From: a virus
DNA: 64,000 nt
Reading direction: 5' to 3' (one strand)
Virus record (IMG/VR): IMGVR_UViG_3300030108_003282
Coordinates: 30,927-94,926 of that record
Numbering within the stretch: the stretch's first letter is position 1; every line of letters begins with the position of its first letter. The notes below the pieces were generated by a model, which was not told the origin of the DNA, did not search any database, and saw only the letters and a list, made by a program, of their open reading frames with translations. Both the position numbers and the translations under genes were made by a program. This document shows positions 2-47,666 of this stretch, in pieces.

Positions 2-1456
2 TCTATCTAAACTGGTATCTTCAAATTTAACACGAGTTAATAAATTACTATTTGATAAATTAAATGCCCTGCGATACACCTTTTCTCCGCCAAGTAAAGT
101 GGTCATATCAAAAGTAGTTGTGAATTTTCCTTCTGTCAATAATCTACTTTTTTCGGTAAGAACAATCTCATTACCATTACGACTTGAAACGATACAAACC
201 CTATCTCCTATCCTTATTTCATCATTTTGATTAAAGTATTCTGAAATGTTAATATGTTCACCATAGGTAGCATTTTTTAAGTCATAGAAATATGATGTTG
301 ATGAAACAGTCACAAAAGAATCTATTTCTCCTACTTGTACCCAATCATTAAAACTACCAGTTCCTATTGCTTGTCGGATAATATAATCTTGATTGGTCTG
401 TAATTTTTTTCCTAAAATTTGATTATTATCAATTACTTTAGTTTCTGAATATCCTGCCTTACCATCAATTGATTCTTCGATATACGAATCAAAAACATTA
501 TTTAGTAAATTGCTTTTATTAGGAGAGTCTCTATAATGAGTGTATCTAGTTAAACCATTTAATGAGAGAGAAGAGTAATTATCATCACTATCCCTTCTTG
601 CATTAATAAAACAATCGTTATAGTCATCATAATCAGTAAAAGTCCCAGAAAGAACAGAACTTTCATTACTAGTTGCAGTATTGGGGTCATCTTTTAATTT
701 AAGATTATCTTTTAATTTGACAACATAAGAATACTTGCTTGAGTCAATAACTCTATAATGGGTTTCAGCCATTGTTACGAAAGAAACTTTTTCGGCACTA
801 GCACTTAAATCAATACTATTTCCACTACTTGCTTCGTGTAATCTAACAAAATATTTAGTATTATGGTCTAATTCATTATCCTTTACTGTTTTATCATTGT
901 AAAAATACCATAACGGTCTTGATACAACATAATTTGCTCCAAAGGTAGAAGCATCTAAGCCTCCAGTAATTGCGACGATTTTAGTAGAATTAGCAATAGA
1001 TGGTCCTTTAAAAATCATAAACTTCGTTCCTTTAGCGACCCTATTACCAAATTTAGGCTCAAAAGTAAAGGAATCTCCGTTAGAATCAGCGTTTTCTACT
1101 GTATCAATTTTAGCAAAGTGATGCATATTAGCATCATCAGAATGGATTAAAACAAAATAAGTGTCTGTTGTTAAATCAATACTAGCCAAATCAACTCCAT
1201 TTGTTCCATCATAACATCTTATAGTGTGTCCGTTTGTATTATCCAAATTAGAATATTCTGTTAAAAGAGCAGTACCAACTTTTTCAATAACTGTATTTGC
1301 ATTTGAACCGAGTAAAGTATCATCAGTATGAATAATTCCAAAAACTCTTTGTGTAAATGCAGTATTTTTAGTTATTTTGGGATTAGTAGGAACATCATAA
1401 TTATTATCTGCCGTAGCATTGTAAATAGAAGTCAAACCGCCAACTGTTAATGTCAT
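2..1456 (-). CDS. Tail/baseplate-region structural protein (partial, runs off window)
   Basis: ATG at 1456 overlaps the upstream TGA (ATGA); translates MTLTVAGLTSIYNATADNNYDVPTNPK...; absent from the ORF track, presumably because no stop lies in the window; downstream of tape measure. Confidence 0.6.
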   Translation of the reverse strand, partial: MTLTVGGLTSIYNATADNNYDVPTNPKITKNTAFTQRVFGIIHTDDTLLGSNANTVIEKVGTALLTEYSNLDNTNGHTIRCYDGTNGVDLASIDLTTDTYFVLIHSDDANMHHFAKIDTVENADSNGDSFTFEPKFGNRVAKGTKFMIFKGPSIANSTKIVAITGGLDASTFGANYVVSRPLWYFYNDKTVKDNELDHNTKYFVRLHEASSGNSIDLSASAEKVSFVTMAETHYRVIDSSKYSYVVKLKDNLKLKDDPNTATSNESSVLSGTFTDYDDYNDCFINARRDSDDNYSSLSLNGLTRYTHYRDSPNKSNLLNNVFDSYIEESIDGKAGYSETKVIDNNQILGKKLQTNQDYIIRQAIGTGSFNDWVQVGEIDSFVTVSSTSYFYDLKNATYGEHINISEYFNQNDEIRIGDRVCIVSSRNGNEIVLTEKSRLLTEGKFTTTFDMTTLLGGEKVYRRAFNLSNSNLLTRVKFEDTSLDR

Positions 1457-2589
1457 AAGTTTTCCTCCTCAAATTGCAAAAATAAAAGAGTTTCTGAAAA
1501 TTTTGGCATAAGACTATTTAAATATCTAAATGATTTTTGATAACTGCCAACAACACAAAGTTCATGTATCTCTCCCATAAATTGACAATCAGTAGAAGCA
1601 TTATTATCAGAAGTCGTTTTCTTTCCTATAACAATGTCTTCTCTACCAAAAGTTAAGATTTCAGACGCTAGTGTTTTTGTTGTCGTATTAATTAAAGAGC
1701 CATTATAATACATATTTATTTTTTGAGAAGTTGAAGAATATGCAACCGCTATGTGATGTATATTATCAATGTATTTTGGTTCTTTATATGTTCTAGTAAA
1801 TAGCCTAGTGCCTAATGAAAGCGCACTTGTTGTAGAAGTATCTAAAGTAATTCTACCGCTACTTGGAACATCTACTCCTGTAATTGTTCCCAAAAGAGTA
1901 AAATCAAATTCATTTTCTCTTATGAAAACTTCTTGCCCTACTCCAAATTTAGTAGTATCTGCTCCAATAACTGCTGATGCAGAAGACTGGCCGGGAATAA
2001 CTGAACCAGCATCATTAAATCTAATTCTACCGTCCTCTGTAAAGCCTTCAATATAACTATTATAATTTGCATTTCCGTATTCATAAGAGCGTGAATTAGA
2101 AGAGGTTATAACTGCGCTTGATTGAGAAGAACCTGTACCGCCACTATAAGAATATTCAATTCTAATTCCATACTCGGCAGGTTGATTTACATTATTTGTT
2201 GTAGTATTGACTAAATATAAAGAAAAATTAGCACATTTGAAAAAACACATTTTATGCCCAAATCTATCGCTCGTTGGTAGGTAGGTTTCGCTTAGAAAAG
2301 TCCCTGTTCCGTTAGCGGGCATAACGCCCCTTCTGTTATTCTGTGCTAAACGGTCCCTTCTGCCCGTTGCTCCACTTCCGTTTATGTCATAGGGGGTGAT
2401 AAGGGCTTCTACCGTCCAGTCGCCCTCATGCGCCCATATCCCATAAGGAATATCATCGGTTGTGTCGCTTGGGGTGGACTCTATATCAGGAATATTATCG
2501 GTATAACTAACCGAAACATGAGAATTGCACATAATAGGAAAAACTAAACTTTTCCTCTTACCTACATAAACATCATACATTGATAGCAC
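1453..2589 (-). CDS. Tail protein with LamG/concanavalin A-like domain
   Basis: WTVEALI...HHIAVAY...MYYNGSL...IVIG...FMGEIHEL pattern of LamG-like domains; tail module context. Confidence 0.7.
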   Translation of the reverse strand: MLSMYDVYVGKRKSLVFPIMCNSHVSVSYTDNIPDIESTPSDTTDDIPYGIWAHEGDWTVEALITPYDINGSGATGRRDRLAQNNRRGVMPANGTGTFLSETYLPTSDRFGHKMCFFKCANFSLYLVNTTTNNVNQPAEYGIRIEYSYSGGTGSSQSSAVITSSNSRSYEYGNANYNSYIEGFTEDGRIRFNDAGSVIPGQSSASAVIGADTTKFGVGQEVFIRENEFDFTLLGTITGVDVPSSGRITLDTSTTSALSLGTRLFTRTYKEPKYIDNIHHIAVAYSSTSQKINMYYNGSLINTTTKTLASEILTFGREDIVIGKKTTSDNNASTDCQFMGEIHELCVVGSYQKSFRYLNSLMPKFSETLLFLQFEEENL

Positions 2590-2590
2590 C

Positions 2591-3220
2591 TCAAGGGAAA
2601 ATATTTGCTTGTTTAAATTCCATGCTAAATTCTACTTCTGTAGTTTCACCGCTTAGTGTAAAATTAAAAGATTGAATATAGCCACTAATTCCATCGGCTG
2701 TTTGTGTATCTGGAAAATTAAAAGGAAAAGGTACACGTTCATTATCTTTATCATTTGCTTCTCCCCTTGCACTAAAGGTAAATGGAATCAAATCGCCTCT
2801 TGAACCAACGCCTGAAGCAGAATCTCTATCAACAAAGGAAGAATCAACATTAGAAGGTATAAGAATTACTAGTTCATTAAAGTTTTGATATTTAGCGATA
2901 CTAGATGAATCAACGCTTGCGGCTATCATTTGAGCAATTTCCTGAGCAGTAAAGAAAACAGAACCCGAAGTGTGGCTCTTTGTTATGTTTGCATCAGTAA
3001 TGAACCCACTAAGAGAAATGGTTTTTTCAGCCGCACCAAAGTCAGCACCAACAGTTAATGACTCACCAGTAGCAATACTTGATAAAGGAATAGTAAAATC
3101 TAAAACTTGACGACTAACTGAAATGCTTAAATTATTTATTCTTAGAGGAATAGTATCTGTAGTTAAATCAGTAGAGCCTTTAGCAAAAGCATTAAGTTTT
3201 AAATATACATAACTACTCAT
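2591..3220 (-). CDS. Distal tail/hub-like protein
   Basis: Immediately downstream of tape measure; beta-rich (ISLSGFI, GYIQSFNFT, EFSMEF). Confidence 0.5.
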   Translation of the reverse strand: MSSYVYLKLNAFAKGSTDLTTDTIPLRINNLSISVSRQVLDFTIPLSSIATGESLTVGADFGAAEKTISLSGFITDANITKSHTSGSVFFTAQEIAQMIAASVDSSSIAKYQNFNELVILIPSNVDSSFVDRDSASGVGSRGDLIPFTFSARGEANDKDNERVPFPFNFPDTQTADGISGYIQSFNFTLSGETTEVEFSMEFKQANIFP

Positions 3221-3224
3221 TTAA

Positions 3225-4886
3225 TCACCTCATTATTGCAGAAGATGTGCTTCTATTGACAGAATTATTAACCATATTTCCTATTTTTTGTGCTATTCTT
3301 CTAAGTTCTGCATCAGATGTATCTTTTGCATTAATCGTAATATTGAAATTATTAACAGGGCTAGAATTAGAAATCATCTTTTTACTTTGTGAATTGGAAT
3401 GAACCCTTGAACCTCTTGGTAATGAAACTAATTCTGCTCCTCTTTCTCCAACAACTGCTAATCCTCCTGAAGAAGTTCCTCCTTTAGAAAAACCTGGAAC
3501 TATATCAGCCAACTTTTTAACTGCAAATGCCGCTACTTTGTATAAAACTATGCCAATTGTTAATGCCAACCAAACAGGCGCACCCATTATAAATGCAATA
3601 AGACCACCGACAACTAAAAGAATAGCAGGTAAAGCCTTAAGGAAGTTTTCTGTGTTTTTAAAAGCATTACTTATGAAACCTTTTAATCTATCAAATGCAA
3701 TTCCTACAAATTCTACAACAAATCCACCTAAAGCAACTAATAATGTCCCTACAACCCCTAAAGCAAATTGTAATATGCCAAGACCAATTAGAATAACCCC
3801 GTCAATAACATCATTTAAACTACCCCCTTCTCCGAAGAATCCTTTAAAAATGCTTTGTATTCCTTCCCACACTAGCATTATTCCACCAAGAGCAATAGTA
3901 GCCACTTGTAATATTGCAGGATAAATAGTTTTAAGTGTTTCAATAATAGTTTTCCCAACCGTTTTATATAAAATATATGCTATGGTTAGGAAAAGAGTAG
4001 CATATAGCATCACTTTACCAAAAAATACAAGTGACTTTGCTAAAAATTGAGGTGCGGCTTTCAATCCTTTAATAAATTTATTTGTAAACTTACCCATTTT
4101 ACTCATTTCGATAGCACTATCTCTTGATTCTTCTAATATTTTAATTTGTTCCTCTATATCTTCTATTTCTCGTTTTCCTGCATCACTACTAGCATAAGAC
4201 CTAGAATCCTTAATGGTAGAAAGTTTATTCTTTTCTTCTTTTATTAAACTGTTATAAAATTTAGAAGTTTCTCCTATATCCCTAGCCTCTGCTATTCCTG
4301 ATTTTATTTTGCTTATTATATTAAAGTCGCCCTTCTTCATTTTCATTGCTTTAGGTAAAGACAATATTCCTCTAGTCATTTTTTTGAATATATTATCTAT
4401 ATTTTCTCCGTCTTCTCCCGTTTTTCTAAATACTCCGCCTAAAAATCTAAAAGAAGTAGATAATTTATTCACTAATCTAAACATTCCAGGCGGTAAAAAC
4501 CCATACATAACTTTTCTTGCTAGTGAAGCCTCTACACCAAAGATTTTAACTCTTTGATTAGTTGATGATAATGCTAAGTCAAAGAAATCGAAGGCGTTTC
4601 CACCCGAAGCAATAAAAGCATCAAATGATTTTTTAGAAAAAATTTCAAATTTTCTTACTTCTAATCCACCCGCTTCTAATTGCTTAAAAGCGCGATTAAG
4701 AGTTTCTTCTCTCGTAACCAATTCTTTATTAAGTGCTTTTTCTGTCTTTTCTGCTTTTTTGGTTTGTTCAGTAAATGTCTTTTGTGATTTAGCAAAATTA
4801 TCTAAAGTATCTGTTAATTTATCCATAGTGGCTTGCATTGTCTCCAACATCGCATTATTTTGCCTTAATGTTGCAGTATATGTCAT
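3225..4886 (-). CDS. Tape measure protein
   Basis: Helical with hydrophobic segments; C-terminal FSKGG...AVVGERGAELV typical of TMPs; follows the chaperone pair. Confidence 0.8.
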   Translation of the reverse strand: MTYTATLRQNNAMLETMQATMDKLTDTLDNFAKSQKTFTEQTKKAEKTEKALNKELVTREETLNRAFKQLEAGGLEVRKFEIFSKKSFDAFIASGGNAFDFFDLALSSTNQRVKIFGVEASLARKVMYGFLPPGMFRLVNKLSTSFRFLGGVFRKTGEDGENIDNIFKKMTRGILSLPKAMKMKKGDFNIISKIKSGIAEARDIGETSKFYNSLIKEEKNKLSTIKDSRSYASSDAGKREIEDIEEQIKILEESRDSAIEMSKMGKFTNKFIKGLKAAPQFLAKSLVFFGKVMLYATLFLTIAYILYKTVGKTIIETLKTIYPAILQVATIALGGIMLVWEGIQSIFKGFFGEGGSLNDVIDGVILIGLGILQFALGVVGTLLVALGGFVVEFVGIAFDRLKGFISNAFKNTENFLKALPAILLVVGGLIAFIMGAPVWLALTIGIVLYKVAAFAVKKLADIVPGFSKGGTSSGGLAVVGERGAELVSLPRGSRVHSNSQSKKMISNSSPVNNFNITINAKDTSDAELRRIAQKIGNMVNNSVNRSTSSAIMR

Positions 4887-4890
4887 TTAA

Positions 4891-5106
4891 TCACCTAATT
4901 TTGTTCATATTATTTTTTGTATTTTTTTCCATTTTATCCATTTCTTCTTGTTCTAGTTCTAGCATTACTTTATGAATGGATAATAAATCAATAACTAATG
5001 AAGATGGCATTTTGTAAATTTCAAGAGGACTTATTCCTAATGCTTTCGCCAATGAATAAACTATGATTAAGGAAATATGTTCAGGAGAGCCTTTTCCTCC
5101 CTTCAA
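4891..5106 (-). CDS. Tail assembly chaperone, frameshift extension (gpT-like)
   Basis: In the -1 frame relative to 5115..5492 and open through the slippery site; LAKALGISPLEIYKMP motif. Confidence 0.75.
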   Translation of the reverse strand: MKGGKGSPEHISLIIVYSLAKALGISPLEIYKMPSSLVIDLLSIHKVMLELEQEEMDKMEKNTKNNMNKIR

Positions 5107-5114
5107 TATTCCCT

Positions 5115-5492
5115 TTAATTTACGTTTTTTTCTTCATCCTCCTCTAACGCATTAAATGGGTTTGGGAGAATTTCTTTTAACTGATTGCCGATATACGGCG
5201 TGAGTCGTAAAATGTCAATCGCAGAAAGACTTGGTTCTGTCTTTACTACGAAATTTTCAACCATGAATCTAAACATAGCGTTTAGGTCTAACTCCATGTC
5301 TTGACGCTTTGCATCAATCTTCATCATGGCGTTCATGGCTTTATCAACCTCAAGCCATGTGGGTTCTTTTACCCACACTTTGAGGTATTCTTCTTTTTCG
5401 GGTGCTACACGAATATAATGCAGCGTAGGCTCGGTTAGTGCAAAAAGCACACTTTTATCTGATACAATTTTTCTGTTCAACATTTTATCCAC
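5115..5492 (-). CDS. Tail assembly chaperone (gpG-like)
   Basis: Between major tail protein and TMP; ends GAA-AAA-AAC-GTA-AAT-TAA. Confidence 0.75.
   Translation of the reverse strand: MDKMLNRKIVSDKSVLFALTEPTLHYIRVAPEKEEYLKVWVKEPTWLEVDKAMNAMMKIDAKRQDMELDLNAMFRFMVENFVVKTEPSLSAIDILRLTPYIGNQLKEILPNPFNALEEDEEKNVN
5124..5130 (-). other. -1 ribosomal frameshift heptamer A-AAA-AAC
   Basis: X-XXY-YYZ in frame; -1 frame reads KRKLKGILKGGKGSPEH into 4891..5106. Confidence 0.8.
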
Positions 5493-5532
5493 CTTTTATA
5501 CCAACAAACAAACAAACGGTGTTGGTGGAATA

Positions 5533-5640
5533 TCATTCTGCTAACTTAGACTTTTGAGTAGTTTTCTTTTCTTTTTTTGGTTTTTTATCCTGTGCTTTTA
5601 GTGCCTTAACTAAGGCTAATTTTTCTGCTCTTGAAACCAT
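5533..5640 (-). CDS. Small basic protein (35 aa)
   Basis: MVSRAEKLALVKALKAQDKKTKKRKKTTQKSKLAE; GGTGA RBS upstream; fills an intergenic gap. Confidence 0.55.
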   Translation of the reverse strand: MVSRAEKLALVKALKAQDKKPKKEKKTTQKSKLAE

Positions 5641-5644
5641 GCTA

Positions 5645-7486
5645 TCACCCCTGCAAAACCCAATGTGTTTTAACGGTGCAAAGACTTAAATTTCTCGGCA
5701 TAACTGTGGCTTCTACTGCAATTGGCCCTTTATCATCAGCGATTGGGAAATTGTTAGAACTTACCATGTAATCAGTAAAGTTTAAAGTAATTGCTTCACC
5801 GTTAGGCTTAGTGAAAATTAATTCAATAGTCTGTGTAATATTTTCAGTATCATCTCTAAGTGCCTTATATAATGCATTATCAGTCACATGACCTGTAAAT
5901 GAAATTTCATAATTTCTTTGAGCAGGAATAGCCTCTTGAACTTCTTTGCTTCCAACACCTAAAAACCTACGGTCTTGGAGATTATTGTTCATAGTCAATG
6001 TTAGAGTATTGATTTTCAAAAACTCTTGTCCTAATACCTTAAAGGTTCCATCGGAGAAGAAAAATGGCTCTCGGAACTCTTGTGCTGCATTTGCACCAGT
6101 TGTTTCTGCTTCAAAATTAAAGAAATCTTTTTCATTAGAAACTGCGCTTCTAGCATCATATTGCTCTCCTTCTTTTGGAGAGTGAACATTTCTAGTATTT
6201 AGGCTAAGAGTCATTTTAACCTCTTCATTTTCATTTGCGGTCATTGTTAAAGTATTAACCCTACATCCTCTTGCGATTTGAACAAAAGAATTATCTTCAT
6301 CTTCTGTTAAAGTAAATGTAAGAGAAGAACCCGTAGCAGTAGCATTGTTTGTCAATTCTGCTCTAACCCCGCTAACAATTTGTGCAATACGAGTATGGGC
6401 AGGAATACCAGTTCCACTAATTAACATTCCAACCTGCATTAAAGCAGAATTAGCATTATCAGTAAATGTAATTGTGGTATCTCCTGAAGTTGTGCTTCCG
6501 CCAGTAATTGAAATAGAAGTTGTATCTGTTCTAAACGGGGTAGTGGCCGCTAATTTACTATCACTTCTTTCAATAGCAAAAGAAGGTAAATTATCCGAAT
6601 CCGATTCAGCAAAGGTATAAGTGATGGGATTGGTAATAGAGCCACTTGAAATACTCGGTCTAGTCAAAACATCCATATTCGTTATATTAGCAATTTCATT
6701 ATCTGCTAAAGGAGGACAAATATCTGTTCCTACACTCCTATAAAAAATAGGGCCAGTTTCAGTAAATGATGCTAAAGTTTTTCCAGCACCAACAGGAACA
6801 TTAGTTCCGCTTGCATCTAAGCCTTCAATCAAAACTTTATTTGATTCACCAGCAGTAAATCTATCTGTAATTGAAGAACCAACCGCTTCGGTTGAGCAAA
6901 TTAGGCTTGTGCATCTTCCTAAGAAATAATAAAGCCAAGCACCATGATTTGCTACCAAATTTAAATCAGCCGTCCCAAAGTTCGTAATCCCTTTGTATTG
7001 GTAAGTAAAGTTTCTTGAGCCACCGAGACTTAAATTAACTTGCTTAAAGTCAGGCTCAACTGTTGGGAAAGTAGCACTTTCAAGAACACCTAACCATTGG
7101 TCAGAAAGAAGTCTTTTTGCGGTTGAAGTAGTTGAAGGAGTGGGTGCGCCATATGCACGAATAACGAAATAGTCATCTGCATGGGGCTTAAATGAATGTG
7201 TCGTAGTAATAGTTGTGGCGGTATTTGATTTAATTCTATGAACTGAGGCTAAGGTATCGTCTGCCCCAGTATATCTTTCAATTAAACAACCAATATACAA
7301 ATCCTCCAATAAAGAAAAATTTGTTAAAAACCCAGAGGATGCTTTAACTTCATTAGTTGTTAATGAGCCGTTTGTTGGGAATGCTGAATCGTCATCCTGT
7401 CGCCCTACCCCTAAATATAAATCACATTCAGGAATAAATGTTAAACTAGTGCCAGCCCCTAAAAATATATCTTTGTTTAATACCAT
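5645..7486 (-). CDS. Major tail (tube) protein with inserted decoration domains
   Basis: Tube-like motifs (LPSFAIE, GCRVNTLTMT, LTMNNNL, RNYEISFTG); position before the chaperones. Confidence 0.75.
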   Translation of the reverse strand: MVLNKDIFLGAGTSLTFIPECDLYLGVGRQDDDSAFPTNGSLTTNEVKASSGFLTNFSLLEDLYIGCLIERYTGADDTLASVHRIKSNTATTITTTHSFKPHADDYFVIRAYGAPTPSTTSTAKRLLSDQWLGVLESATFPTVEPDFKQVNLSLGGSRNFTYQYKGITNFGTADLNLVANHGAWLYYFLGRCTSLICSTEAVGSSITDRFTAGESNKVLIEGLDASGTNVPVGAGKTLASFTETGPIFYRSVGTDICPPLADNEIANITNMDVLTRPSISSGSITNPITYTFAESDSDNLPSFAIERSDSKLAATTPFRTDTTSISITGGSTTSGDTTITFTDNANSALMQVGMLISGTGIPAHTRIAQIVSGVRAELTNNATATGSSLTFTLTEDEDNSFVQIARGCRVNTLTMTANENEEVKMTLSLNTRNVHSPKEGEQYDARSAVSNEKDFFNFEAETTGANAAQEFREPFFFSDGTFKVLGQEFLKINTLTLTMNNNLQDRRFLGVGSKEVQEAIPAQRNYEISFTGHVTDNALYKALRDDTENITQTIELIFTKPNGEAITLNFTDYMVSSNNFPIADDKGPIAVEATVMPRNLSLCTVKTHWVLQG

Positions 7487-9528: not shown

Positions 9529-11148
9529 TTATACACCAATCATTCTTTTAAGTTTTCTAACATTCTTTTTTATTTTATTTGAATGAGAAACCATGCTTCT
9601 ATTCTGTCTTGACCTTGAGCCACTCAAATTGTATTCTCCGTGTTTAGTCACTTCAAAAGTTAATTTAACAAAAGCATCACCAAAAGCGTCTTGAATATCT
9701 CCTAATCTGAGAGTCTCTGTTCCAAATTTCATTTGACCAAAATCACCCGCATCTCTTGTAGTTGTTGGTTTTTCATCTCCTACTTCAAACACTCTAATTT
9801 CAGACTTGTAATTTTCTTTTTCTGCTTTAGGCAATTTAGCATATTCATCTTCCGAAATAAAGATAGGATTTCCTTTTTCGTCTTTTTCTGTTTTATGGCT
9901 AAAGGCTCTTTTAGATTGCTCATCAATCATTTCTTGAGTTAATGGCTTTCCACCTTCACCCATAGTTGTTAATCCTTCGGCAGCAGTAGCAAAATCTCTA
10001 TATGTTTCTGCTCTATCCTTTTTTGTAGTAATATTTCCATATACTTTAAAAGAATACACTTCATCAGGTATAACCAAGAAAGGCTTAAATGCTTTCATAA
10101 TTACTCTTTTAACTGCTTCATCCTCAAAGAAACCTTCAATAGTTCCTCTTCCTTCTCCATCAAATTTAAGATTTGCTTGCTTACCAGATTCACCTTCGGG
10201 CTTAAATACGAAGGAGTAGTATTTACCATTCAATTCGATAATATCTTCTTCTTTCATCTCTTCCGTTCTATTCAAATCCCCGATTGCTGATTGAACATTA
10301 AGCATATTGATTTCTTCTTCAGGATTTGATGTAAGATTTATTTTTTCCCCAACAGATTCAAACTCTCCATCTTCATTTAATTCTGCTTCAATGACATAAT
10401 TTTCTTGTGCAGAAACCCCGCCTTTTAATTTGTCAATAAAGGAATCAGGTATGTTAAATGAATAATCAACAACATCTTCTGCAATTGTAAACTTTTGGTT
10501 AGATGGTCTATATGATGCCTCTTGCCCAGTAGTTTCTAAAATAAAATCTGCTTTAACTTTCTCTAAATCTCCATAATCAAAAGCAGGTATCTTGGCCTCA
10601 ATGTGTGCCTTAAGCGAACTTCGTTGTGGTTGATGAGCATAGTTGAACCTATCATTTAATCTTTTATTTTCTCTAAACTGAATATCATAGTTTACAGTTG
10701 GCTTATCACCATAGGCTGAAATAAAATCATCAAAATCAAAGTCGGGTAATTTAGTTTTTCCACTACGAATAAAAGAAACATCAGTTCCTTTTAATCTACC
10801 AAGAACTCTTGCATTTGTAATGTCTCCTACTTTTTTATCTTCAATAAAAGCAAGATTAGATTCGTTTGGGGTTTTATCCCTCTTACGAGAAAATCCTTTC
10901 CATGCGTCAGCGTCTCTTTCCAAAAGAGGTTTTAGTGGTTCATCGAGAACCTTTTCTAAAATTTCTGTTAATTGTTCTTTTAGTGCGGCACTATTTGGCT
11001 CGCTATCATCTACACTATCCTTTGCAGTCTTAACCTTACGACGAAATTCTTTATCGCCAGTAAGAACATAGTCTTTCATCTGTGTTTCAATAAAAGACGC
11101 AGAACGAGGAAGACTAAGGGTTTGTCGTCCCCAATTAAAACTAACCAC
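9529..11148 (-). CDS. Hypothetical protein
   Basis: 539-aa ORF with RBS; no recognised motif. Confidence 0.7.
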   Translation of the reverse strand: MVSFNWGRQTLSLPRSASFIETQMKDYVLTGDKEFRRKVKTAKDSVDDSEPNSAALKEQLTEILEKVLDEPLKPLLERDADAWKGFSRKRDKTPNESNLAFIEDKKVGDITNARVLGRLKGTDVSFIRSGKTKLPDFDFDDFISAYGDKPTVNYDIQFRENKRLNDRFNYAHQPQRSSLKAHIEAKIPAFDYGDLEKVKADFILETTGQEASYRPSNQKFTIAEDVVDYSFNIPDSFIDKLKGGVSAQENYVIEAELNEDGEFESVGEKINLTSNPEEEINMLNVQSAIGDLNRTEEMKEEDIIELNGKYYSFVFKPEGESGKQANLKFDGEGRGTIEGFFEDEAVKRVIMKAFKPFLVIPDEVYSFKVYGNITTKKDRAETYRDFATAAEGLTTMGEGGKPLTQEMIDEQSKRAFSHKTEKDEKGNPIFISEDEYAKLPKAEKENYKSEIRVFEVGDEKPTTTRDAGDFGQMKFGTETLRLGDIQDAFGDAFVKLTFEVTKHGEYNLSGSRSRQNRSMVSHSNKIKKNVRKLKRMIGV

Positions 11149-11158
11149 TTAATTCACC

Positions 11159-11806
11159 TCACATGAGCCATTTTGCCCAAGCCGCCCCTTTTTGGATTGC
11201 CGCACCTAAATGTAATCCACTTGAAGGAGGCTCATAACTCATTTGACCTTGAGCATCAATCCAATAAGGACGACCATATCCGTCTGTTCCCGAAGGAGGA
11301 ATAGGATAGCCTGTGCCATTATTCATAGCACCTTGCATTTGTTGATATTGTTGAGTATTTCCAGTAACGTTGGCTAAAGCCATACCTGCTGATGGTTGTT
11401 GCATACCTCCACCACTAAATCCCTGTGATTCAAGATACTGTTGTTTTGCCATCTTTCTTTGCATAACAACCTCAGTATTAATTGCTGATTGCAATAACTT
11501 TTGAATATCTAAATCAATGTTTTCTTGAGTAATTCTTTCGTATTCACGAAGAGCATCTCGGTTTACAGTAAGGTTGCTGCCATTAGTGTCAAAACTTAAC
11601 TTAGCAAGCATTTGAGAAACAACTCTTTCAACAACATCTTCCATTAACTTTTCAAGAGCAATCAAGAATTGTTCTCCATGATATTGAAAAAATTCTTCAA
11701 CATGATTTTCCTGTAATGAAAGTAAATTATTTACAGTCTTAAATTGTGTGTCGCTTTGCGCTTGAACTGCTCCTAAAACAGTCTTGTTGCTAGTTCCAAA
11801 TACCAT
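11159..11806 (-). CDS. Coiled-coil protein with Q/G-rich linker and amphipathic C-terminal helix
   Basis: Ends LGAAIQKGAAWAKWLM; part of the GTPase module. Confidence 0.65.
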   Translation of the reverse strand: MVFGTSNKTVLGAVQAQSDTQFKTVNNLLSLQENHVEEFFQYHGEQFLIALEKLMEDVVERVVSQMLAKLSFDTNGSNLTVNRDALREYERITQENIDLDIQKLLQSAINTEVVMQRKMAKQQYLESQGFSGGGMQQPSAGMALANVTGNTQQYQQMQGAMNNGTGYPIPPSGTDGYGRPYWIDAQGQMSYEPPSSGLHLGAAIQKGAAWAKWLM

Positions 11807-11808
11807 AT

Positions 11809-12498
11809 CTATGCCTCCTTAACTAATTCCTCTTTTATTTCTTCTTGCGGTAATTCATTTTGTGCTTGAACATTATGCTTAAGCATCAAATGATTGAGTC
11901 TTTCTGTGATAATATTTATTTCAGTGATTAGACGAATGACCTCATCCGTTGCCGTCTTTGAATCTCCTATTGCGGGTGGGGTTATAAACCATCCTGCCGA
12001 GGTAAGACTCATAACATCTTCTTTGCTTAAAGTCTTAATTGGTCCTGCTTTGAGCATTTTAGGCATACGGGGCTTAAATGATTTAAATTCAAGTCCATGC
12101 TTATCTGCAAGAATTTGCTGTTGTAGCATTTCTAATTGCATATATATGGAAGCGTGTTTAGGACAATAAGTTCCCATTAAAGGTCTTCCCTTAACTACTC
12201 CATCTAAAGGCATAGGAGGACGCATATAATCTCCTTGTTCCCAAATATGATGAAAACCACAAACAACACATCTGTCTTTGAGGTTAAATTTTTTTCCATA
12301 TTTAATGCCTAAAAACTTCTTTGGTTCTGCTTTTAAAACCAATTTAAGTTCCTTTAATTGAGTCTTCGGCTTATACGAAATAAACTTGTATTCTTGCACA
12401 ACACCACTTGCTCTTGCCTGTTGAAGTGGCGAAAGAGCAGGATTAAATTGTTGTGGTGCATTTTGTCCTATAATGTTGTTTTGGTACATAATAATCAA
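11809..12498 (-). CDS. Zn-finger protein
   Basis: CVVC...CPKH; C-terminal coiled coil. Confidence 0.6.
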   Translation of the reverse strand: MIIMYQNNIIGQNAPQQFNPALSPLQQARASGVVQEYKFISYKPKTQLKELKLVLKAEPKKFLGIKYGKKFNLKDRCVVCGFHHIWEQGDYMRPPMPLDGVVKGRPLMGTYCPKHASIYMQLEMLQQQILADKHGLEFKSFKPRMPKMLKAGPIKTLSKEDVMSLTSAGWFITPPAIGDSKTATDEVIRLITEINIITERLNHLMLKHNVQAQNELPQEEIKEELVKEA

Positions 12499-13160
12499 TA
12501 GTCCTTTATCATTGTGGTAATTCCTCTATAAACCATTTCGGGGTCAGACTTTGCAGAAACAATATATTTGAAACACGGTATTCCTTTATCATTTAACTTT
12601 CTCATTCCATATTTAAATGGTTCAAATATTTCATGCTTATCTATAGATTGGTCTTCTAATGGATATTTCTTTCCCCAAATATCATACTTATTTGCCCAAA
12701 TACCTACTGCCATTGGAAAATCTGAGTCTCTTTTCTTTTTACCGTTTGACCACTTATTTGAAATAATCGAATCAACTAAAAACTTCCATGCTAACTGATG
12801 GTCTAAATTAACTTCACTATCTAAATGCCTGTGGTCAATCATGAAAATAATATATTTGACTCTCCTATTTTGCATATCCTTTTCCCATTCTTTCCAGTAA
12901 ATTGCTTCTCCTCCAATATCTGCACTTCTTACTGTATGGGAGTCTCCATCTATTTTGACATTTTTTCTTGTTGCTCTATGTCTTCCAACCGTTCTTTCAT
13001 TTATTTGAGGAACTTCCCCTCTTGTTCTTAATTGATGGCTTAGTGTTGTTTTTCCAACCATTGTGGCCCCATAGACTCCAAAATTAATTGCGTGAATTTT
13101 TTTGTAAAATCCTATGATTGCTTCACCTACAAGAATAGCAAATCCTGTCATTAGGGACAT
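12495..13160 (-). CDS. Small Ras-superfamily (Arf/Rab-like) GTPase
   Basis: G1 GATMVGKTT, G2 ERT, G3 DIGG, G4 NKYD, G5 SAK; hydrophobic N-terminal helix; start via TAATG overlap. Confidence 0.9.
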   Translation of the reverse strand: MSLMTGFAILVGEAIIGFYKKIHAINFGVYGATMVGKTTLSHQLRTRGEVPQINERTVGRHRATRKNVKIDGDSHTVRSADIGGEAIYWKEWEKDMQNRRVKYIIFMIDHRHLDSEVNLDHQLAWKFLVDSIISNKWSNGKKKRDSDFPMAVGIWANKYDIWGKKYPLEDQSIDKHEIFEPFKYGMRKLNDKGIPCFKYIVSAKSDPEMVYRGITTMIKDY

Positions 13161-13378
13161 TAATGCCCCCACCCATTGAGAAGGGTATCTAATAACCAGC
13201 CCATGATGTTAATATCAAAAACACCAAGAATATTTCCAATAAGGAAACCTGAAAGACAGGCACAAGAACCCCAAAACCACATTCTCATCTTCAAAAAGAA
13301 GATATCTGCTGAATGCGCCCTTTGTTGATTATAAGCATAATCCGAATCAGAAAAGCCCATTATGTCGCCAAAGACCAT
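13160..13378 (-). CDS. Small membrane protein
   Basis: One or two hydrophobic segments. Confidence 0.65.
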   Translation of the reverse strand: MVFGDIMGFSDSDYAYNQQRAHSADIFFLKMRMWFWGSCACLSGFLIGNILGVFDINIMGWLLDTLLNGWGH

Positions 13379-13389
13379 TCTTTCACCGC

Positions 13390-13773
13390 CTATTGTAGTG
13401 CGGCCAAGAACTCATTACCAACGCTATTTTCTTCTTCCTGCTGAACAGGTTGATAAAAGGTAGTGTTGTATTGTTTTGCGCTTTCACGCATCTTTTGTCT
13501 TTGTTGTTCATCCCTAGCCTTTCTTTCCCAGTATGCCGCAATTTTACGGTCTAAGAGCCAAAGTTCAATTCTATCATTGAGTGATAAATCAAAAATTGCT
13601 TTCATAACCATAATTGCACCAATTGTGCCTAAACCAAATAGAACTGAGTGTGCTAATGGGCCATAAGGAAAATTCATTCCGAATGCCGCATATGCCCAAA
13701 CATTTGTTCCGCTTAATGCGCCAACAAATAAAATTGTCATAATGAGTCTTGTATCTTGACTTAATGCTGCCAT
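13390..13773 (-). CDS. Two-TM membrane protein with charged coiled-coil tail (holin-like topology)
   Basis: LIMTILFVGALSG and VLFGLGTIGAIMVM helices, then WERKARDEQQRQK. Confidence 0.65.
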   Translation of the reverse strand: MAALSQDTRLIMTILFVGALSGTNVWAYAAFGMNFPYGPLAHSVLFGLGTIGAIMVMKAIFDLSLNDRIELWLLDRKIAAYWERKARDEQQRQKMRESAKQYNTTFYQPVQQEEENSVGNEFLAALQ

Positions 13774-13782
13774 TTTAACACC

Positions 13783-14067
13783 TCAAGAAAAGTGAATGAA
13801 AGTATTTGCGTTTCCACTAGTCTCTTCATAAAAGAGTCCAACAGAACAAATAACCCCATGCATGTCAAATTCGAGATTTTGGACACCAGCACCATCTATG
13901 TTAATACGGGCTAATTCTTTACCCGTATTATCTGTTCCGTCAAATACTTTTATTTGACAAGGCGCACCGCCACTATCGTTATTAACATGAATAGAAATTA
14001 ATTTGCATTGTCCAACAAAAACCTTTCCACTAGCCGTTAAAAGACCACTACTTCTGCAACTCGGCAT
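13783..14067 (-). CDS. Small beta-rich virion protein
   Basis: Beta-sandwich-like composition; downstream of capsid genes. Confidence 0.5.
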   Translation of the reverse strand: MPSCRSSGLLTASGKVFVGQCKLISIHVNNDSGGAPCQIKVFDGTDNTGKELARINIDGAGVQNLEFDMHGVICSVGLFYEETSGNANTFIHFS

Positions 14068-14128: not shown

Positions 14129-14449
14129 TTATTCAGCCAAAGAGGACTTTTTGCTCTTAGCAGGTGCTTTCTTCACCTTTGGTTTAGCGGGGAGAAGATA
14201 TGCACACAATTTATCATGTGTGTCAAAATCTTTTCCTAACGCCTTGCCTAAGCGAACCAGTCTTTCGGGCTTTAGTTGCTTCAAAACCTTTCTTTCACTT
14301 TCGAGAAAAGTGATTTCTAAAGCACTATCGCCTAAATAGATTAAAGCCTTTTCAGTAGGCAAATCTAAAGAGACTGTTCTATCAAGCACTTGTCCATCAA
14401 CAAATAGTGTTTTTGACCTTGCCCCTTTGGTCAGTTTAATTGTTGCCAA
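14129..14449 (-). CDS. Hypothetical protein with basic tail
   Basis: TTG start after AGGTGG. Confidence 0.6.
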   Translation of the reverse strand: MATIKLTKGARSKTLFVDGQVLDRTVSLDLPTEKALIYLGDSALEITFLESERKVLKQLKPERLVRLGKALGKDFDTHDKLCAYLLPAKPKVKKAPAKSKKSSLAE

Positions 14450-14459
14450 TTAAACCACC

Positions 14460-14795
14460 TCAAAGCAAACCAAAGACTCTTACACGAACAATTCCTTCAT
14501 CAGCAGTTCCGCTTTGTTGTGCAGAACCAGTCGAAAGAATGATTTTGACGCTAGAAACAGATTCATAAGCCCCCGTTGTTGAAACAACGGCTCTTGCTGA
14601 ATGACCAATTTCTTCTACGCCAGTTACCATCAATTGCGTGATTTGACTTAAACCGACTTCGGCAGCCGTTAAAGTAATACCTCCAGAAACATAATTGGTG
14701 ATGTTAATGATTGCATCAACCATATATTCATCGCCATTTGCTCTTGGCTTGGTAAAACCTTTATGGTCTGCCAATAACGTAACTGTATGTGCCAA
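14460..14795 (-). CDS. Putative capsid decoration/minor capsid protein
   Basis: GAGGTGA RBS + TTG at 14795 (track extension to 14930 overlaps MCP); directly after MCP. Confidence 0.55.
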   Translation of the reverse strand: MAHTVTLLADHKGFTKPRANGDEYMVDAIINITNYVSGGITLTAAEVGLSQITQLMVTGVEEIGHSARAVVSTTGAYESVSSVKIILSTGSAQQSGTADEGIVRVRVFGLL

Positions 14796-14805
14796 TTTAA
14801 TCACC

Positions 14806-16158
14806 TCAAAGAAGGTTGGTAATCTTTCCTTGACCCTTGAAGTAAGAACAACCAGTTTCACCCATTGTGCGATAAAGAGCCTTGTTTCCGAGGTTTCCAA
14901 CACCGAATGGGTTTCCGTTGCTGATACCATCCTCGAAATACTGAGTAGGCTTCATCACAGACAGCCACAAATGGTCAGTATCAAGGAAAAGCATATCGCT
15001 AATCAAACTTGAGTTATTACCAGTAGTAGGCATAGCGGCAACAGGAATCAAAGGAATGTCGTAGTAAGTAGAAACACGGAATCCGACTTCTTGACCCTTA
15101 ACACCACGAACACCGTTCACGGTTGGGACAATTTCTTTTCGGTCCATGAATCGCTCTTGAGCCTGTAATAAGTCAGAAAGCGTTTGAAGGGTGTCATATC
15201 CAGTAAGGATAACCTTTGGTGAACCGCCAGCAACACGGAGTCTTCGGAGCATATCGTTAATAACCGTTAAGGTTAATTGTCGTGCTTCTGCCGAAAGGTA
15301 GCCATCACCAAAAGAAACTTCTGCATCCAAAAACTCGTTTCCTGAATCACTTCTTTGCTTTCCGTAAAGGTGGTCAATTTGTTGGTCAGTAGCAGAATCA
15401 ACAAGGTTTCCACCAGAATTGTCAGCCAATTCGGTAATTTCAGCCGAGTTAGAAACAATCTTCATAAGAGAAGTGTAGCCTCTATCAATAGCGTTTGCCG
15501 TGTTATAAGCCGTAGTTGGAGAATAGTTCTCCAATGGCATAACAAGCATAGTGTTTTGAACTTCAGCGTGATGCTTACCCATGTCTTCTCTCAATTGCGC
15601 TCTAATATCACCGATACCGTCGTCAATCTGAGCCATTTCCATTGAAAGTTCGCTGAAAGCAAATTGATGAGCAATAATTTTTGGGCTCGTAAAGAGAACA
15701 TCGTATTCAGGAGCAATTGATTGAAGACCGTCCGAATCTGAATCTAACGATGCATTTTCTGGAACGCCACCAATTCGGTCTGCTCTCAAAGAATCAGCAC
15801 CATAAAGTGCAGTATTAAGAGTGGTGTTGGAAGCGGCAGAAATGTCCAAAAAGTTTCCAGAACCGCCAGCAGGACGCTTCTTGAGGATTCTCCAACCACT
15901 TGAAGAATATGGTCGCTTTGAAATAACAGACAATGCGTTGCATTCTCGGTTTAACATAGACCAGACCTTTTGGCCGTAAATCTTGTTGTAAAGGTTTGCG
16001 TTAATTCCCGATGGGTCGCTAAATGAACCATCGTGAGCAACATGAATGCCGCTTACGGTTCCTTGAGCCTTAAGCAATTGATTGCTAATGTGGCCCGTTG
16101 CGCTTGTTCCATAGGTTTGTGCTTCTAAATCTGCAATAGTGTTAATATATCCTGTCAT
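14806..16158 (-). CDS. Major capsid protein (HK97 fold)
   Basis: Follows protease; GGVPEN, PKIIAHQFAFSELS, STYYDIPLIP, MLFLDTDHL; strong RBS; codon bias of high expression. Confidence 0.85.
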   Translation of the reverse strand: MTGYINTIADLEAQTYGTSATGHISNQLLKAQGTVSGIHVAHDGSFSDPSGINANLYNKIYGQKVWSMLNRECNALSVISKRPYSSSGWRILKKRPAGGSGNFLDISAASNTTLNTALYGADSLRADRIGGVPENASLDSDSDGLQSIAPEYDVLFTSPKIIAHQFAFSELSMEMAQIDDGIGDIRAQLREDMGKHHAEVQNTMLVMPLENYSPTTAYNTANAIDRGYTSLMKIVSNSAEITELADNSGGNLVDSATDQQIDHLYGKQRSDSGNEFLDAEVSFGDGYLSAEARQLTLTVINDMLRRLRVAGGSPKVILTGYDTLQTLSDLLQAQERFMDRKEIVPTVNGVRGVKGQEVGFRVSTYYDIPLIPVAAMPTTGNNSSLISDMLFLDTDHLWLSVMKPTQYFEDGISNGNPFGVGNLGNKALYRTMGETGCSYFKGQGKITNLL

Positions 16159-25400: not shown

Positions 25401-25691
25401 TTAGCAATTCCACCTTCTTCTAGCGGCTTTTGCTTTCTCGCTGTAAGTGCCATCTTTTCTCTTAAATCCTCTTGACCTTGCACAAAAACTCTTTCTTCTT
25501 TTTGCTGCCTTACTTCCAGGTTTTAATTTACTAGGCTTAGTAGTAACTGGTGGCTTTAAATTAGAACCTTGTTCACGCTTAAACTTAGCACGACCTTTAG
25601 CACTTAATCCACCCGTTCTTGCGTGAATCTTTTTGTTATAGCCTTTAAATGGCTTCTTTTTCTTTTTAAGAATATCTTGCCAATCATTCAT
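25401..25691 (-). CDS. Lys/Arg-rich putative DNA-binding core protein
   Basis: W-tag; GGL.AKGR...GSNLKPPV...RRKSFCAR...RRWNC, a motif recalled from marine phage proteins. Confidence 0.65.
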   Translation of the reverse strand: MNDWQDILKKKKKPFKGYNKKIHARTGGLSAKGRAKFKREQGSNLKPPVTTKPSKLKPGSKAAKRRKSFCARSRGFKRKDGTYSEKAKAARRRWNC

Positions 25692-26259
25692 ATTTATCAC
25701 CTATCATGTAGCCTAATTTTTTTCCTGCTTCAATATCGCTTGGGTAGTGGCTTCCCATTTGTATTCTTGATAAAGAAATTTTGTCAGCCATTTCTTTTAA
25801 TTCTTTCTTCTTATCTGGATATTTTTTTCCTAAAACTCTTTCTAATCCATGAGCAAGCATTGAATGACCGCTTGGGAAAGCAGGAGTATCATCTGTTTTT
25901 GTTTTTGTTGTTTTTATTTTATCAGATATTTGATGAGGACGTGGCCTTTGGTATTTCATTTTAAGTGTCATGGCATAATAATTAATATCTTTCATGAAGT
26001 CCATGTAATTATTTTTGTCCTCGCCTACAATTTTAAACATTTCAACATCGGGTTTTAAGTCAGAATCTTTCATTTGCTTAGGAGTTATTCTTTTCTTTTT
26101 CATTGTTGCTATCACAGAAGGTATTTCTTTTTCTTCTTGGGGATAACTTAATTTAGGAATATCTATTTTCATCTTTGGGCTTCTTTCTAATATTTTCTTC
26201 TTATCTTCCGAAAGTGTTCCTTCCCACTTTCTTTTCTTAAGAATAGAAAACCAATTCAT
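25684..26259 (-). CDS. PAP2/acid phosphatase (haloperoxidase superfamily)
   Basis: KxxxxRPRP, FPSGH, SRxxxGxHYPSD; N-terminal W-tag MNWFSILK. Confidence 0.85.
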   Translation of the reverse strand: MNWFSILKKRKWEGTLSEDKKKILERSPKMKIDIPKLSYPQEEKEIPSVIATMKKKRITPKQMKDSDLKPDVEMFKIVGEDKNNYMDFMKDINYYAMTLKMKYQRPRPHQISDKIKTTKTKTDDTPAFPSGHSMLAHGLERVLGKKYPDKKKELKEMADKISLSRIQMGSHYPSDIEAGKKLGYMIGDKYE

Positions 26260-26263
26260 TTTA

Positions 26264-47581: not shown

Positions 47582-47666
47582 GCTGGGATGGCTGAGCATG
47601 GTTAAAAGCGCAGGGCTTAAACTCCTGTCCTAAAATGGTTCGCAGGTTCAAATCCTGCTCCCAGCA
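47582..47666 (+). tRNA. tRNA-Leu(TAA)
   Basis: GCTGGGA/TCCCAGC acceptor; CAGGG-CTTAAAC-TCCTG anticodon arm; long variable arm; GGTTCAAATCC. Confidence 0.9.

Follow-up and report, generated by a model that had tools for sequence, protein, structure and literature searches.

A conserved five-gene cassette with an Arf/Sar/SR-beta-like small GTPase and predicted membrane proteins in a magrovirus: a possible membrane remodelling or egress module

The Cassette and Its Genome

The 64-kb window, the whole stretch of DNA that was analysed, is from a magrovirus (Poseidoniales virus). The viral genome is complete at 95 kb and is that of a tailed virus with Marine Group II archaea as host. Five tightly packed genes form a cassette on the minus strand between 11159 and 13773 of the window. 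From its upstream end it encodes a 127-aa membrane protein with two hydrophobic helices (13390..13773), a 72-aa single-pass membrane protein (13160..13378), an Arf/Sar/SR-beta-like small GTPase of 225 aa (12495..13172), a Cys/His protein of 229 aa (11809..12498) and a Q/G-rich protein of 215 aa (11159..11806). The first two were predicted from the ORFs and hydropathy, the GTPase from its motifs, AF2 fold and profile, and the last two from alignment, hhalign and HMM.

The junctions comprise gaps of 9 and 11 nt and a TAATG stop/start overlap at 13160. Ahead of the Cys/His gene the spacing is 5 nt (or a 4-nt overlap) and ahead of the Q-rich gene it is 2 nt, while 10 nt lie between the Q-rich gene and the next gene. 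A conserved ATG at 13160 gives a 221-aa GTPase. This ATG, overlapping the upstream stop as TAATG, is the likely true start of the GTPase, as is the conserved ATG at 12489 for the Cys/His protein.

In the window a prohead protease gene and the major capsid protein gene lie upstream of the cassette and a tail tube gene lies downstream. In the window's lineage the cassette is found inside a late head-to-tail gene string. An earlier note made from the sequence had described five tightly coupled genes between capsid and neck genes. All five ORFs were recovered with short gaps or overlaps, as it had said. The placement holds in this lineage but not elsewhere, where the cassette adjoins a giant ORF or a thermosome gene. 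Hydrophobic helices were predicted in three of the five products and there are few other TM proteins in the genome. The capsid-targeting tag W-x-x-[IL]-[IL]-K was absent, by eye, from all five proteins. The cassette was not described in the searchable magrovirus literature.

The Small GTPase

Motifs G1 to G5 are intact in the GTPase (GATMVGKT, RT of switch I, DIGG, NKYD and SAK). G1, G3 and G4 are invariant in an alignment of 23 relatives. GATMVGKT agrees with the P-loop GxxxxGK[ST], and across the 23 sequences there was no variation at G35, G40 and K41 of this motif, at D85 and G88 of DIGG (G3) or at N161, K162 and D164 of NKYD (G4). The Thr of ERTVG in switch I aligns with the Thr of EATIG in Rab33B, and R-T is kept across clades. 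G5 is SAK in this GTPase and SA[KLRQ] or AT[KR] in relatives. After DxxG this clade has Glu (DIGGE), where relatives have Gln, His, Asp or Ala. The catalytic Gln is also missing from atypical small GTPases, for instance Sar1 (His) and Rap (Thr), so its loss does not exclude the protein from the Ras superfamily. Switch II reads D85-I-G-G-E...W96, with W96 kept in at least 90% of the 23 sequences, and an F-x-x-D strand is present. We take such a strand, like the D-x-G-G...W(+11) signature, to be typical of Arf, Sar and G-alpha.

The AF2 model (pLDDT 89.4, pTM 0.84) has a small G-domain fold. Together with the five motifs it bears out the earlier description of an intact Ras-superfamily GTPase. 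Foldseek of the model against the PDB gave at least 500 matches at E<=1e-3, and the top 50 were all GTPases. The nearest structures were Arf6, SR-beta, Sar1 and G-alpha, with VIA-align Z scores of 18.4 for Arf6, 17.7 for SR-beta and 17.4 for Sar1. The best match of the family profile to the PDB was Asgard ArfR (8OUN, E 9.6e-10), then Arl3 (5e-9) and Arf; EngA, KRas and Rab33B followed the top Arf-type matches within two orders of magnitude. At E<=0.1 this GTPase had no match to Pfam Arf (PF00025), which was matched by five of the 23 family members (best E 1.9e-15). Pfam SRPRB was likewise matched by five of the 23. Fold and profile support its assignment as a very divergent GTPase of the Arf/Sar/SR-beta type.

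The 360 homologs of the GTPase were all from marine metagenomes or viruses. It matched none of the PHROG families, and tblastn with both GTPase clades against 50,697 GenBank phage records (INPHARED), a set from which near-identical records may be missing, gave no match, in agreement with the earlier remark that a small GTPase is unusual in tailed viruses. Viral structural look-alikes in BFVD were giant-virus GTPases only. Scans of viral contigs for distant relatives, made with P0161 and P0177, two of the most distant GTPase relatives, and with P0134 and P0148, gave no usable match. The sole match of a single-protein scan of cellular genomes was an 86%-identical 12-kb contig in a 'Maricaulis' MAG. 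Its length and range equal those of an IMG/VR magrovirus contig, and it was rejected as a binning error and not a cellular homologue.

Residues 2-26 of the AF2 model form a helix ahead of the G domain. Residues 4-22 are hydrophobic (Kyte-Doolittle 1.89). The helix has a mean hydrophobicity of 0.71 and a hydrophobic moment of 0.18, against about 0.15-0.29 and 0.27 for the reference helices of Arf1 and Sar1. For a typical Arf/Sar1 helix it appears overly hydrophobic and not amphipathic enough. Judged on sequence, it looks more like a TM-like anchor in the style of SR-beta than an amphipathic helix. The earlier note had called it an Arf/Sar1-like hydrophobic N-helix; the hydrophobic helix was confirmed and the likeness to Arf/Sar1 was not.

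The Small Membrane Proteins

In the 127-aa protein residues 39-61 are hydrophobic, with a weaker segment at about 10-32 and a charged, Q/E/R-rich C-terminal tail. The 72-aa protein has a predicted TM segment at 38-63, an acidic N-terminal part and a Trp-rich C-terminus. Hydropathy thus agrees with the two-TM protein and the small TM protein proposed before. Each gene was present in 78 of 80 close loci. The clade-2 family HMM found positional counterparts of the 127-aa protein in four further lineages (E 1e-11 to 1e-68). Their alignment showed an architecture common to the lineages, while hhalign of clade 1 against clade 2 was weak (E 0.01). At the position of the 72-aa gene an ORF of 72-100 aa was found in all lineages examined, and alignment of these ORFs showed an invariant Phe3 and an acidic stretch. 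Neither HMM nor hhalign detected homology of the 72-aa proteins between clades.

The Cys/His and Q-Rich Proteins

The Cys/His protein contains the motif C77-x2-C80 ... G104-R105 ... T-Y-C112-P-x-H115, with C77, C112 and H115 invariant in the alignment. This is probably a zinc knuckle between helices, and the Zn-finger protein of the earlier note was found in this form. Clades 1 and 2 aligned by hhalign with a probability of 94.8% (E 5.5e-8), and HMM matches were present in L162-L165. None of its 896 homologs carries a name or a Pfam family. The AF2 model had a pLDDT of 65 and matched no known fold, with nothing below E 5 in Foldseek and a best VIA Z of 4.4. Rab-binding helices among these fold matches were considered noise at that score. 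An ArfGAP-like zinc finger was also rejected, as the conserved G-R lies before and not after the second knuckle and there was no fold match. A co-fold of GTPase residues 24-225 with residues 20-210 of the Cys/His protein scored 0.00, which counts neither way.

The Q-rich protein has a conserved central domain and a Q/G/N/M-rich low-complexity stretch at about 125-200. It ends in a C-terminal Gly/Ala/Trp helix (GLHLGAAIQKGAAWAKWLM). Alignment to the clade-2 counterpart by hhalign gave a probability of 80% (E 1.4e-5, 86 columns), and the clade-2 HMM found counterparts in three of the four further lineages. A match to phrog_14074 'virion structural protein' was weak and unreliable (E 0.013). Matches of the Cys/His and Q-rich proteins in the ESM Atlas were at noise level (scores 0.76-0.82), including the neighbours of the Q-rich protein named as portal or head-tail connector (0.76).

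Conservation, Selection and Expression

At least six divergent lineages keep the cassette gene order, namely clades 1 and 2, with 80 loci each, and four further ones. Identity of the GTPases falls as low as about 30%. Co-occurrence in relatives was the check named in the earlier note, and the five-gene order is indeed kept in distant lineages. The further lineages include two complete genomes of 128 and 140 kb, which share almost no other phmmer-detectable protein with the 95-kb genome. Outside the window's lineage the cassette was found outside the virion gene block, about 12 kb before the portal gene, so late expression should not be assumed for all lineages. Searches of G001 and G002 for the MCP, portal and terminase families were negative.

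Purifying selection on the five genes is strong throughout. dN/dS was 0.045 for the GTPase, 0.065 for the 127-aa protein, 0.084 for the 72-aa protein, 0.088 for the Cys/His protein and 0.10 for the Q-rich protein, and these values indicate that all five genes are real. Four of the five were at or below the value of the capsid protein and the GTPase was below it. Short Logan contigs from seawater metatranscriptomes of two studies included pieces on the 72-aa gene and its junction and on the GTPase, Cys/His and Q-rich genes. Pieces on the capsid gene were more numerous; DNA carry-over is possible in these data, and operon structure and timing cannot be read from them.

Possible Functions

No endolysin, spanin or known holin family was found among the genes scanned, consistent with the earlier observation that no endolysin or lysis gene is visible. 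No envelope-degrading enzyme or other hydrolase was found in or near the cassette, and NCBIfam gave no informative match for it. The partners of the GTPase have no likeness to known GAPs, GEFs, coats, holin families or envelope-degrading enzymes.

We tentatively suggest that the cassette may encode a GTPase switch, bound to the membrane, around which a viral membrane complex is organised, with late membrane remodelling or egress as the most plausible role. The five products would form a single virus-made membrane complex around the switch. The two small TM proteins would insert into the host cytoplasmic membrane, and the GTPase would be anchored next to them through its N-terminal hydrophobic helix, its G domain lying in the cytoplasm. 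In the GTP form it might recruit or arrange the putative zinc protein and the Q-rich protein, and the C-terminal helix of the latter may also be able to lie on the membrane. Hydrolysis of GTP is probably slow or stimulated by a partner, given the Glu at the catalytic position, where relatives carry Gln or His, and would set the timing or render the step irreversible. Late in infection the complex would bend, vesiculate or breach the host membrane, allowing virions to leave a cell without peptidoglycan.

Several observations count against a role in egress, among them the place of the cassette away from the virion gene block in other lineages, the Glu in place of the catalytic Gln and the want of a partner like any known regulator, coat or lysis protein. 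An amphipathic N-terminal helix that passes to the membrane on GTP binding is named as the defining feature of the Arf family (bioRxiv 10.1101/2024.02.28.582541). A permanently anchored GTPase cannot run such an Arf-type cycle on and off the membrane. Conservation is a further point. Phage lysis genes are usually fast-evolving, and the cassette ranks with the most conserved genes that these viruses have.

Such conservation, with the dN/dS of the GTPase below that of the capsid protein, would fit a core role in assembly or replication at least as well as lysis. The anchored GTPase and the TM proteins could mark an assembly site on the host membrane for proheads, the replisome or a virus factory, much as proheads of phage T4 are initiated at the membrane. 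The Q-rich protein could serve as scaffold or form condensates. Retention of the cassette in genomes that share almost nothing else detectable is in favour of a platform of this kind, as are the capsid genes next to it here, the chaperonin gene next to it in other lineages and the Q/N/G-rich low-complexity region of one partner. However, no similarity to any known assembly factor was found, and the neighbours differ between lineages so that there is no fixed functional neighbour. We consider this explanation unlikely.

Small inner-membrane proteins of some phages block the entry of competing viruses. A complex that blocks division, secretion or vesicle formation in the host, or the entry of rival viruses, would be compatible with small TM proteins encoded beside a switch protein and with the different positions of the cassette between lineages. 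The SR-beta-like architecture also hints at contact with the membrane-targeting machinery. Genes for takeover or exclusion are usually variable accessories, however, whereas the cassette is deeply conserved and strongly constrained, and in this genome it is within the late structural string. PADLOC gave no match to it, its library being one of host defence systems and not phage exclusion genes. Takeover or exclusion is quite improbable. It is very improbable that some or all of the products are packaged or part of the neck and act in genome delivery to the next cell. The location of the cassette here, with capsid genes on one side and neck genes on the other, and the phrog_14074 and Atlas matches of the Q-rich protein might point to such a role. 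Those matches, however, reach no reliable threshold, no recognisable virion genes lie close to the cassette in other lineages, and tailed virions have no membrane to hold TM proteins.

A late, GTPase-controlled membrane complex remains our preferred, tentative reading. In its bolder form the cassette would be the egress machine of tailed archaeal viruses, vesiculating or rupturing the membrane of wall-less marine archaea, with an ancient viral Arf-like GTPase at its core, independent of the Arf lineages of eukaryotes and Asgard archaea. This bolder form is somewhat unlikely.

Magroviruses infect uncultured hosts and rank with the most abundant viruses in surface ocean water (PMC5434244). The exit of tailed archaeal viruses is an acknowledged gap, the egress players being described in a 2024 review as 'still completely uncharacterized' (PMC10791045), and the cassette offers a concrete candidate. 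Its five genes are short and strongly conserved, which makes synthesis and expression feasible. Whatever its function, the putatively membrane-anchored Arf/SR-beta-like GTPase constitutes a family confined to viruses of Thermoplasmatota. It is relevant to how Arf-type membrane switches evolved, which has until now been discussed for eukaryotes and Asgard archaea, and to GTPase-driven membrane remodelling in Euryarchaeota (ArvA).

Comparison With Known Systems

The viral GTPase has the same fold as the Arf family (Arf1, Arf6, Arl3, Arl8 and Sar1) and Asgard ArfR (GerdArfR1, 8OUN), with a VIA Z of 18.4 and a Foldseek TM of 0.82 for Arf6. Going by sequence features, it resembles them in D-x-G-G with Trp at +11, in a helix before the G domain and in a probable association with the membrane. 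It differs in its identity of about 15-20%, in falling short of the Pfam Arf threshold, in having Glu for the catalytic Gln and in its N-helix, which is long, hydrophobic and TM-like where that of Arf is amphipathic. Arf and ArfR belong to eukaryotes and Asgard archaea, whereas the gene of the viral GTPase is carried by a tailed virus of Thermoplasmatota. Membrane deformation by Arf1 and Sar1 is known (compare the title of PDB entry 8s5c).

SR-beta is the best match in architecture, having an Arf-like G domain behind a membrane anchor at its N-terminus (VIA Z 17.7 and 16.4). Sequence similarity to it is marginal and no SR-alpha/SRX-like partner was found for the viral GTPase, with no SRX or longin-like protein seen among the cassette neighbours. 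To our knowledge archaea lack SR-beta.

The Rab/Ras/Ran-like GTPases of giant viruses are also virus-encoded small GTPases and were its sole viral structural neighbours in BFVD. Those GTPases derive from eukaryotic genes that viruses of eukaryotes captured recently. In contrast, the magrovirus family is viral-only, very divergent and apparently membrane-anchored, and is found in a fixed cassette of a prokaryotic tailed virus.

Holin cassettes and PVAP likewise involve small viral membrane proteins, and the host envelope is breached from within. The 127-aa protein is like class II holins in its two predicted TM helices and charged C-terminal tail. Conservation of the cassette is far higher than is usual for holins, and its proteins have no similarity to PVAP (virus-associated pyramids). 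We know of no lysis cassette with a GTPase. For Adrikavirales a holin plus amidase pair has been reported (PMC11706807).

Among the cassette neighbours neither ArvB (DUF2073) nor ArvC (DUF2072) was found, and OapC/DUF2072 (PF09845) had no match in the 95-kb genome at E<=1, with a positive Haloferax control. The viral cassette differs from the Arv operon in lacking DUF2073 and DUF2072 and in having two TM proteins and a Q-rich protein. In ArvA-ArvB-ArvC of Haloferax volcanii, membrane budding is controlled by a euryarchaeal small GTPase with an N-terminal hydrophobic helix, whose operon also encodes a Zn-ribbon protein. In Haloferax the small GTPase with its N-terminal helix and Zn-ribbon partner drives vesicle formation and, likened by description, ArvABC may be the nearest functional analogy to the cassette in the host's wider group (PMC10927574).

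Organization and conservation of the cassette

The five minus-strand genes at 11159-13773 are a genuine cassette, conserved and undescribed, with a very divergent Arf/SR-beta-like GTPase at its core. All five ORFs proposed in the earlier note were present. They encode a two-TM protein of 127 aa (13390-13773), a small TM protein of 72 aa (13160-13378), the GTPase (12495-13172), a Cys protein of 229 aa (11809-12498) and a Q-rich protein of 215 aa (11159-11806). Spacing is tight: along the string the junctions measure 9 and 11 nt, followed by a TAATG stop/start overlap at 13160 and then 5 and 2 nt, and the next gene is 10 nt away. For the GTPase and the Cys protein the true starts are likely the ATGs at 13160 and 12489, respectively, where homologues begin. 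By hydropathy the 127-aa protein has two hydrophobic helices, at 39-61 (strong) and ~10-32 (weaker), the 72-aa protein has a single helix at 38-63, and a 19-residue window at the N-terminus of the GTPase reaches a Kyte-Doolittle value of 1.89. Apart from a tape-measure-like protein, proteins with hydrophobic helices are scarce elsewhere in the genome.

Strong purifying selection acts on all five genes. Based on 25 close relatives per gene, dN/dS was lowest in the GTPase (0.045) and rose through the TM proteins (0.065 and 0.084) and the Cys protein (0.088) to the Q-rich protein (0.10); the capsid protein gave 0.089. Three small fast-evolving genes separate the capsid gene from the cassette (13783-14067, 14129-14449 and a gene of ~87 aa). 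The last is listed as a 156-aa ORF at 14460-14930 (minus strand), the start of which falls inside the capsid gene; the true gene probably starts at an ATG near 14722, just after the capsid gene.

The order two-TM, small TM, GTPase, Cys, Q-rich was kept in 80 close loci (clade 1, GTPase at least 82% identical), with a small extra ORF inserted now and then. Among the 45 loci with all marker genes the median identity was 74-86% for the five cassette proteins and 74% for the capsid protein, the GTPase value alone being inflated as loci were picked by GTPase similarity. Genes on either side were far more variable (51, 56 and 35%). Gene order was identical in clade 2, a divergent set of 80 loci with GTPases ~33% identical. 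Profile-profile comparison of the two clades linked the GTPase (99.9%), the Cys protein (94.8%, E 5.5e-8), the Q-rich protein (80%, E 1.4e-5) and, weakly, the two-TM protein (E 0.01); it found no similarity for the small TM protein. The order was repeated in four further lineages, where clade-2 HMMs detected the two-TM and Cys proteins in all four and the Q-rich protein in three. Two of these are complete genomes with terminal repeats (140 and 128 kb), having almost no other protein in common with this genome by phmmer. The synteny asked about in the earlier note thus extends across all these lineages, and as the order is kept while the flanks differ, the five genes travel as a unit.

Flanking genes

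The description of the cassette as embedded in a virion operon holds for this lineage only, where it lies between capsid and neck genes; elsewhere it is flanked by a giant ORF or a thermosome gene. In clade 2 an ORF of ~2,200 aa is upstream. At the clade-2 locus L109 this ORF (497-7108, 2,203 aa) is directly upstream and has no Pfam match; other loci have ORFs of 2,289-2,359 aa in its place. A portal gene was found ~12 kb downstream of the cassette in one clade-2-like genome. Immediately downstream in clade 2 is a homologue (L109 10633-11391, weak HTH match) of a 221-aa protein with a Cys motif encoded at 37356-38021 (minus strand), ~24 kb from the cassette in this genome. It is strongly conserved between clades (HMM E 1.5e-61). 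Clade-2 cassettes also have a sixth gene after the Q-rich gene, encoding an 85-aa protein with two TM helices (L109 10178-10435; L164, a further lineage, 10254-10514), which is absent from this genome. Two other lineages have a thermosome gene upstream. There, several genes after the cassette encode proteins whose only hydrophobic helix is C-terminal, e.g. of 658 and 909 aa (L162 10278-13787; L163 10265-14784). They resemble tail-anchored proteins, and the membrane gene cluster may therefore extend further in these lineages.

Virus and genome setting

The virus record is a complete genome of 94,926 bp, of which the window covers the last 64 kb. Long genes from 1 to ~41,000 are all on the minus strand. 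Among them are genes for terminase, portal, DNA ligase, prohead protease with scaffold, the major capsid protein (SU10 type) and tail tube. The plus-strand half encodes a UvrD-type helicase, ribonucleotide reductase and a TFIIB zinc-ribbon protein. Genes for tRNA-Leu (anticodon TAA, 47582-47667) and tRNA-Arg (anticodon TCT, 54130-54204), both on the plus strand, are located in the replication half. A homologue of the GTPase carries the name 'Poseidoniales virus YSH_150918 gp088'. The second ligase, located within the structural block, and the reductase agree with the description of magrovirus group B (PMC5434244). On this basis the virus belongs to the magroviruses, tailed viruses that infect Marine Group II archaea. 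A PAP2-superfamily phosphatase of 203 aa (25684-26295, minus strand, Pfam E 1.7e-12) is encoded in the late gene string with portal and terminase genes on either side. It is possibly a lipid-phosphate phosphatase, which could link it to membrane chemistry.

The GTPase and its partner proteins

Single-sequence family searches with the GTPase gave weak matches (MMR_HSR1 E 7e-4, TIGR00231 E 2e-4). The motif set is complete, in agreement with its description as intact. In an alignment of 23 relatives with identity down to 21%, G35, G40, K41, D85, G88, D113, N161, K162 and D164 were invariant and W96 nearly so. The AlphaFold2 model (pLDDT 89.4) has a helix at 2-26 followed by a canonical G domain. 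Top Foldseek matches were all small GTPases, the best TM-scores being Arf6 (0.82) and Arf1 on membrane tubules (0.77). VIA-align Z values, the leading ones all inside ~1.4 Z, were 18.4 and 18.3 for Arf6, 17.7 for SR-beta, 17.4 for a Lokiarchaeal RagA-like protein, 17.4 for Sar1, 17.0 for mimivirus Rab and 17.0 for G-alpha-s. The family profile matched first Asgard GerdArfR1 (8OUN, E 9.6e-10) in the PDB, then Arl3 and Arf, with EngA, KRas and Rab33B not far behind. When members were searched individually, the family with the best E-value was Pfam Arf (1.9e-15, 5 of 23 members); SRPRB likewise matched 5 of 23. Switch II reads D-I-G-G-E with Trp at +11; we take D-x-G-G with this Trp to be of the Arf/Sar/G-alpha type. 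At the position of the catalytic Gln its own clade has Glu; other relatives have Gln, His, Asp or Ala.

An Arf/Sar1-like hydrophobic N-helix had been proposed. The hydrophobic helix is present, with a mean hydrophobicity of 0.71 and a hydrophobic moment of 0.18, against about 0.15-0.29 and 0.27 for Arf1 and Sar1 helices. Judged by these values it resembles the fixed anchor of SR-beta more than a switchable amphipathic helix. The N-terminal segment of clade-2 GTPases is shorter and less hydrophobic.

In the Cys protein C77, G81 and T-Y-C112-P-x-H115 are invariant and G104-R105 nearly so. The position of the second Cys differs between the clades: +3 in clade 1, +5 in most clade-2 members. The motif is likely a zinc knuckle. 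The model had middling confidence (pLDDT 65) and no fold match among solved structures, and all 896 homologues were unnamed and without a Pfam family. In the Q-rich protein a conserved central domain is accompanied by a Q/G/N/M-rich stretch (C-terminal here, N-terminal in clade 2), and a Gly/Ala-rich helix forms the end of the protein.

Distribution of the GTPase family

Among 1.8 billion cluster representatives the GTPase had only 66 matches at E<=1e-3; fragments were frequent among these, and none was a cellular GTPase family. All 360 homologues in a 5.8-billion set came from marine metagenomes, a few auto-labelled 'GTPase SAR1 family protein'. One match (86% identical) was found in 185,579 species genomes, on the 12.2-kb contig NZMJ01000024.1 of a 'Maricaulis sp.' MAG. 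A bacterial homologue was rejected, as the contig coincides in length and range with an IMG/VR magrovirus contig; it is a viral contig mis-binned into a public MAG. Small GTPases are indeed unusual in tailed viruses: PHROG families gave no match, nor did tblastn of two family members against 50,697 GenBank phage records. The only viral structural neighbours were giant-virus GTPases. A GTPase is not mentioned in the main texts of the magrovirus papers PMC5434244, PMC10160649 (nor in four supplements of the latter) and PMC11706807.

Putative function

The cassette is located among the late genes of this genome. Short contigs on the cassette genes, and more on the capsid gene, were present in seawater metatranscriptomes from two studies; these are compatible with transcription without proving it or its timing. 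Tentatively, the role of the cassette may be egress or late membrane breaching, a plausible and testable idea. The high conservation speaks against a simple holin analogy, and no match to holin, endolysin, defence, ArvB or ArvC families was found among the five proteins. The same conservation keeps alive a membrane platform for assembly or replication, which we consider unlikely. Host takeover or exclusion is less probable again, and a virion-associated role is very doubtful.

In cells, GTPases of the Arf, Sar and SR-beta types act as switches bound to membranes; when loaded with GTP they recruit partners, and at high density they can deform the membrane. For egress, the two membrane proteins, the anchored GTPase and the two soluble partners would form a membrane-remodelling complex. 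Host lysis by archaeal tailed viruses depends on players that are unknown (PMC10791045). Haloferax needs ArvA, a small GTPase that has a Zn-ribbon partner, for vesicle budding (PMC10927574).
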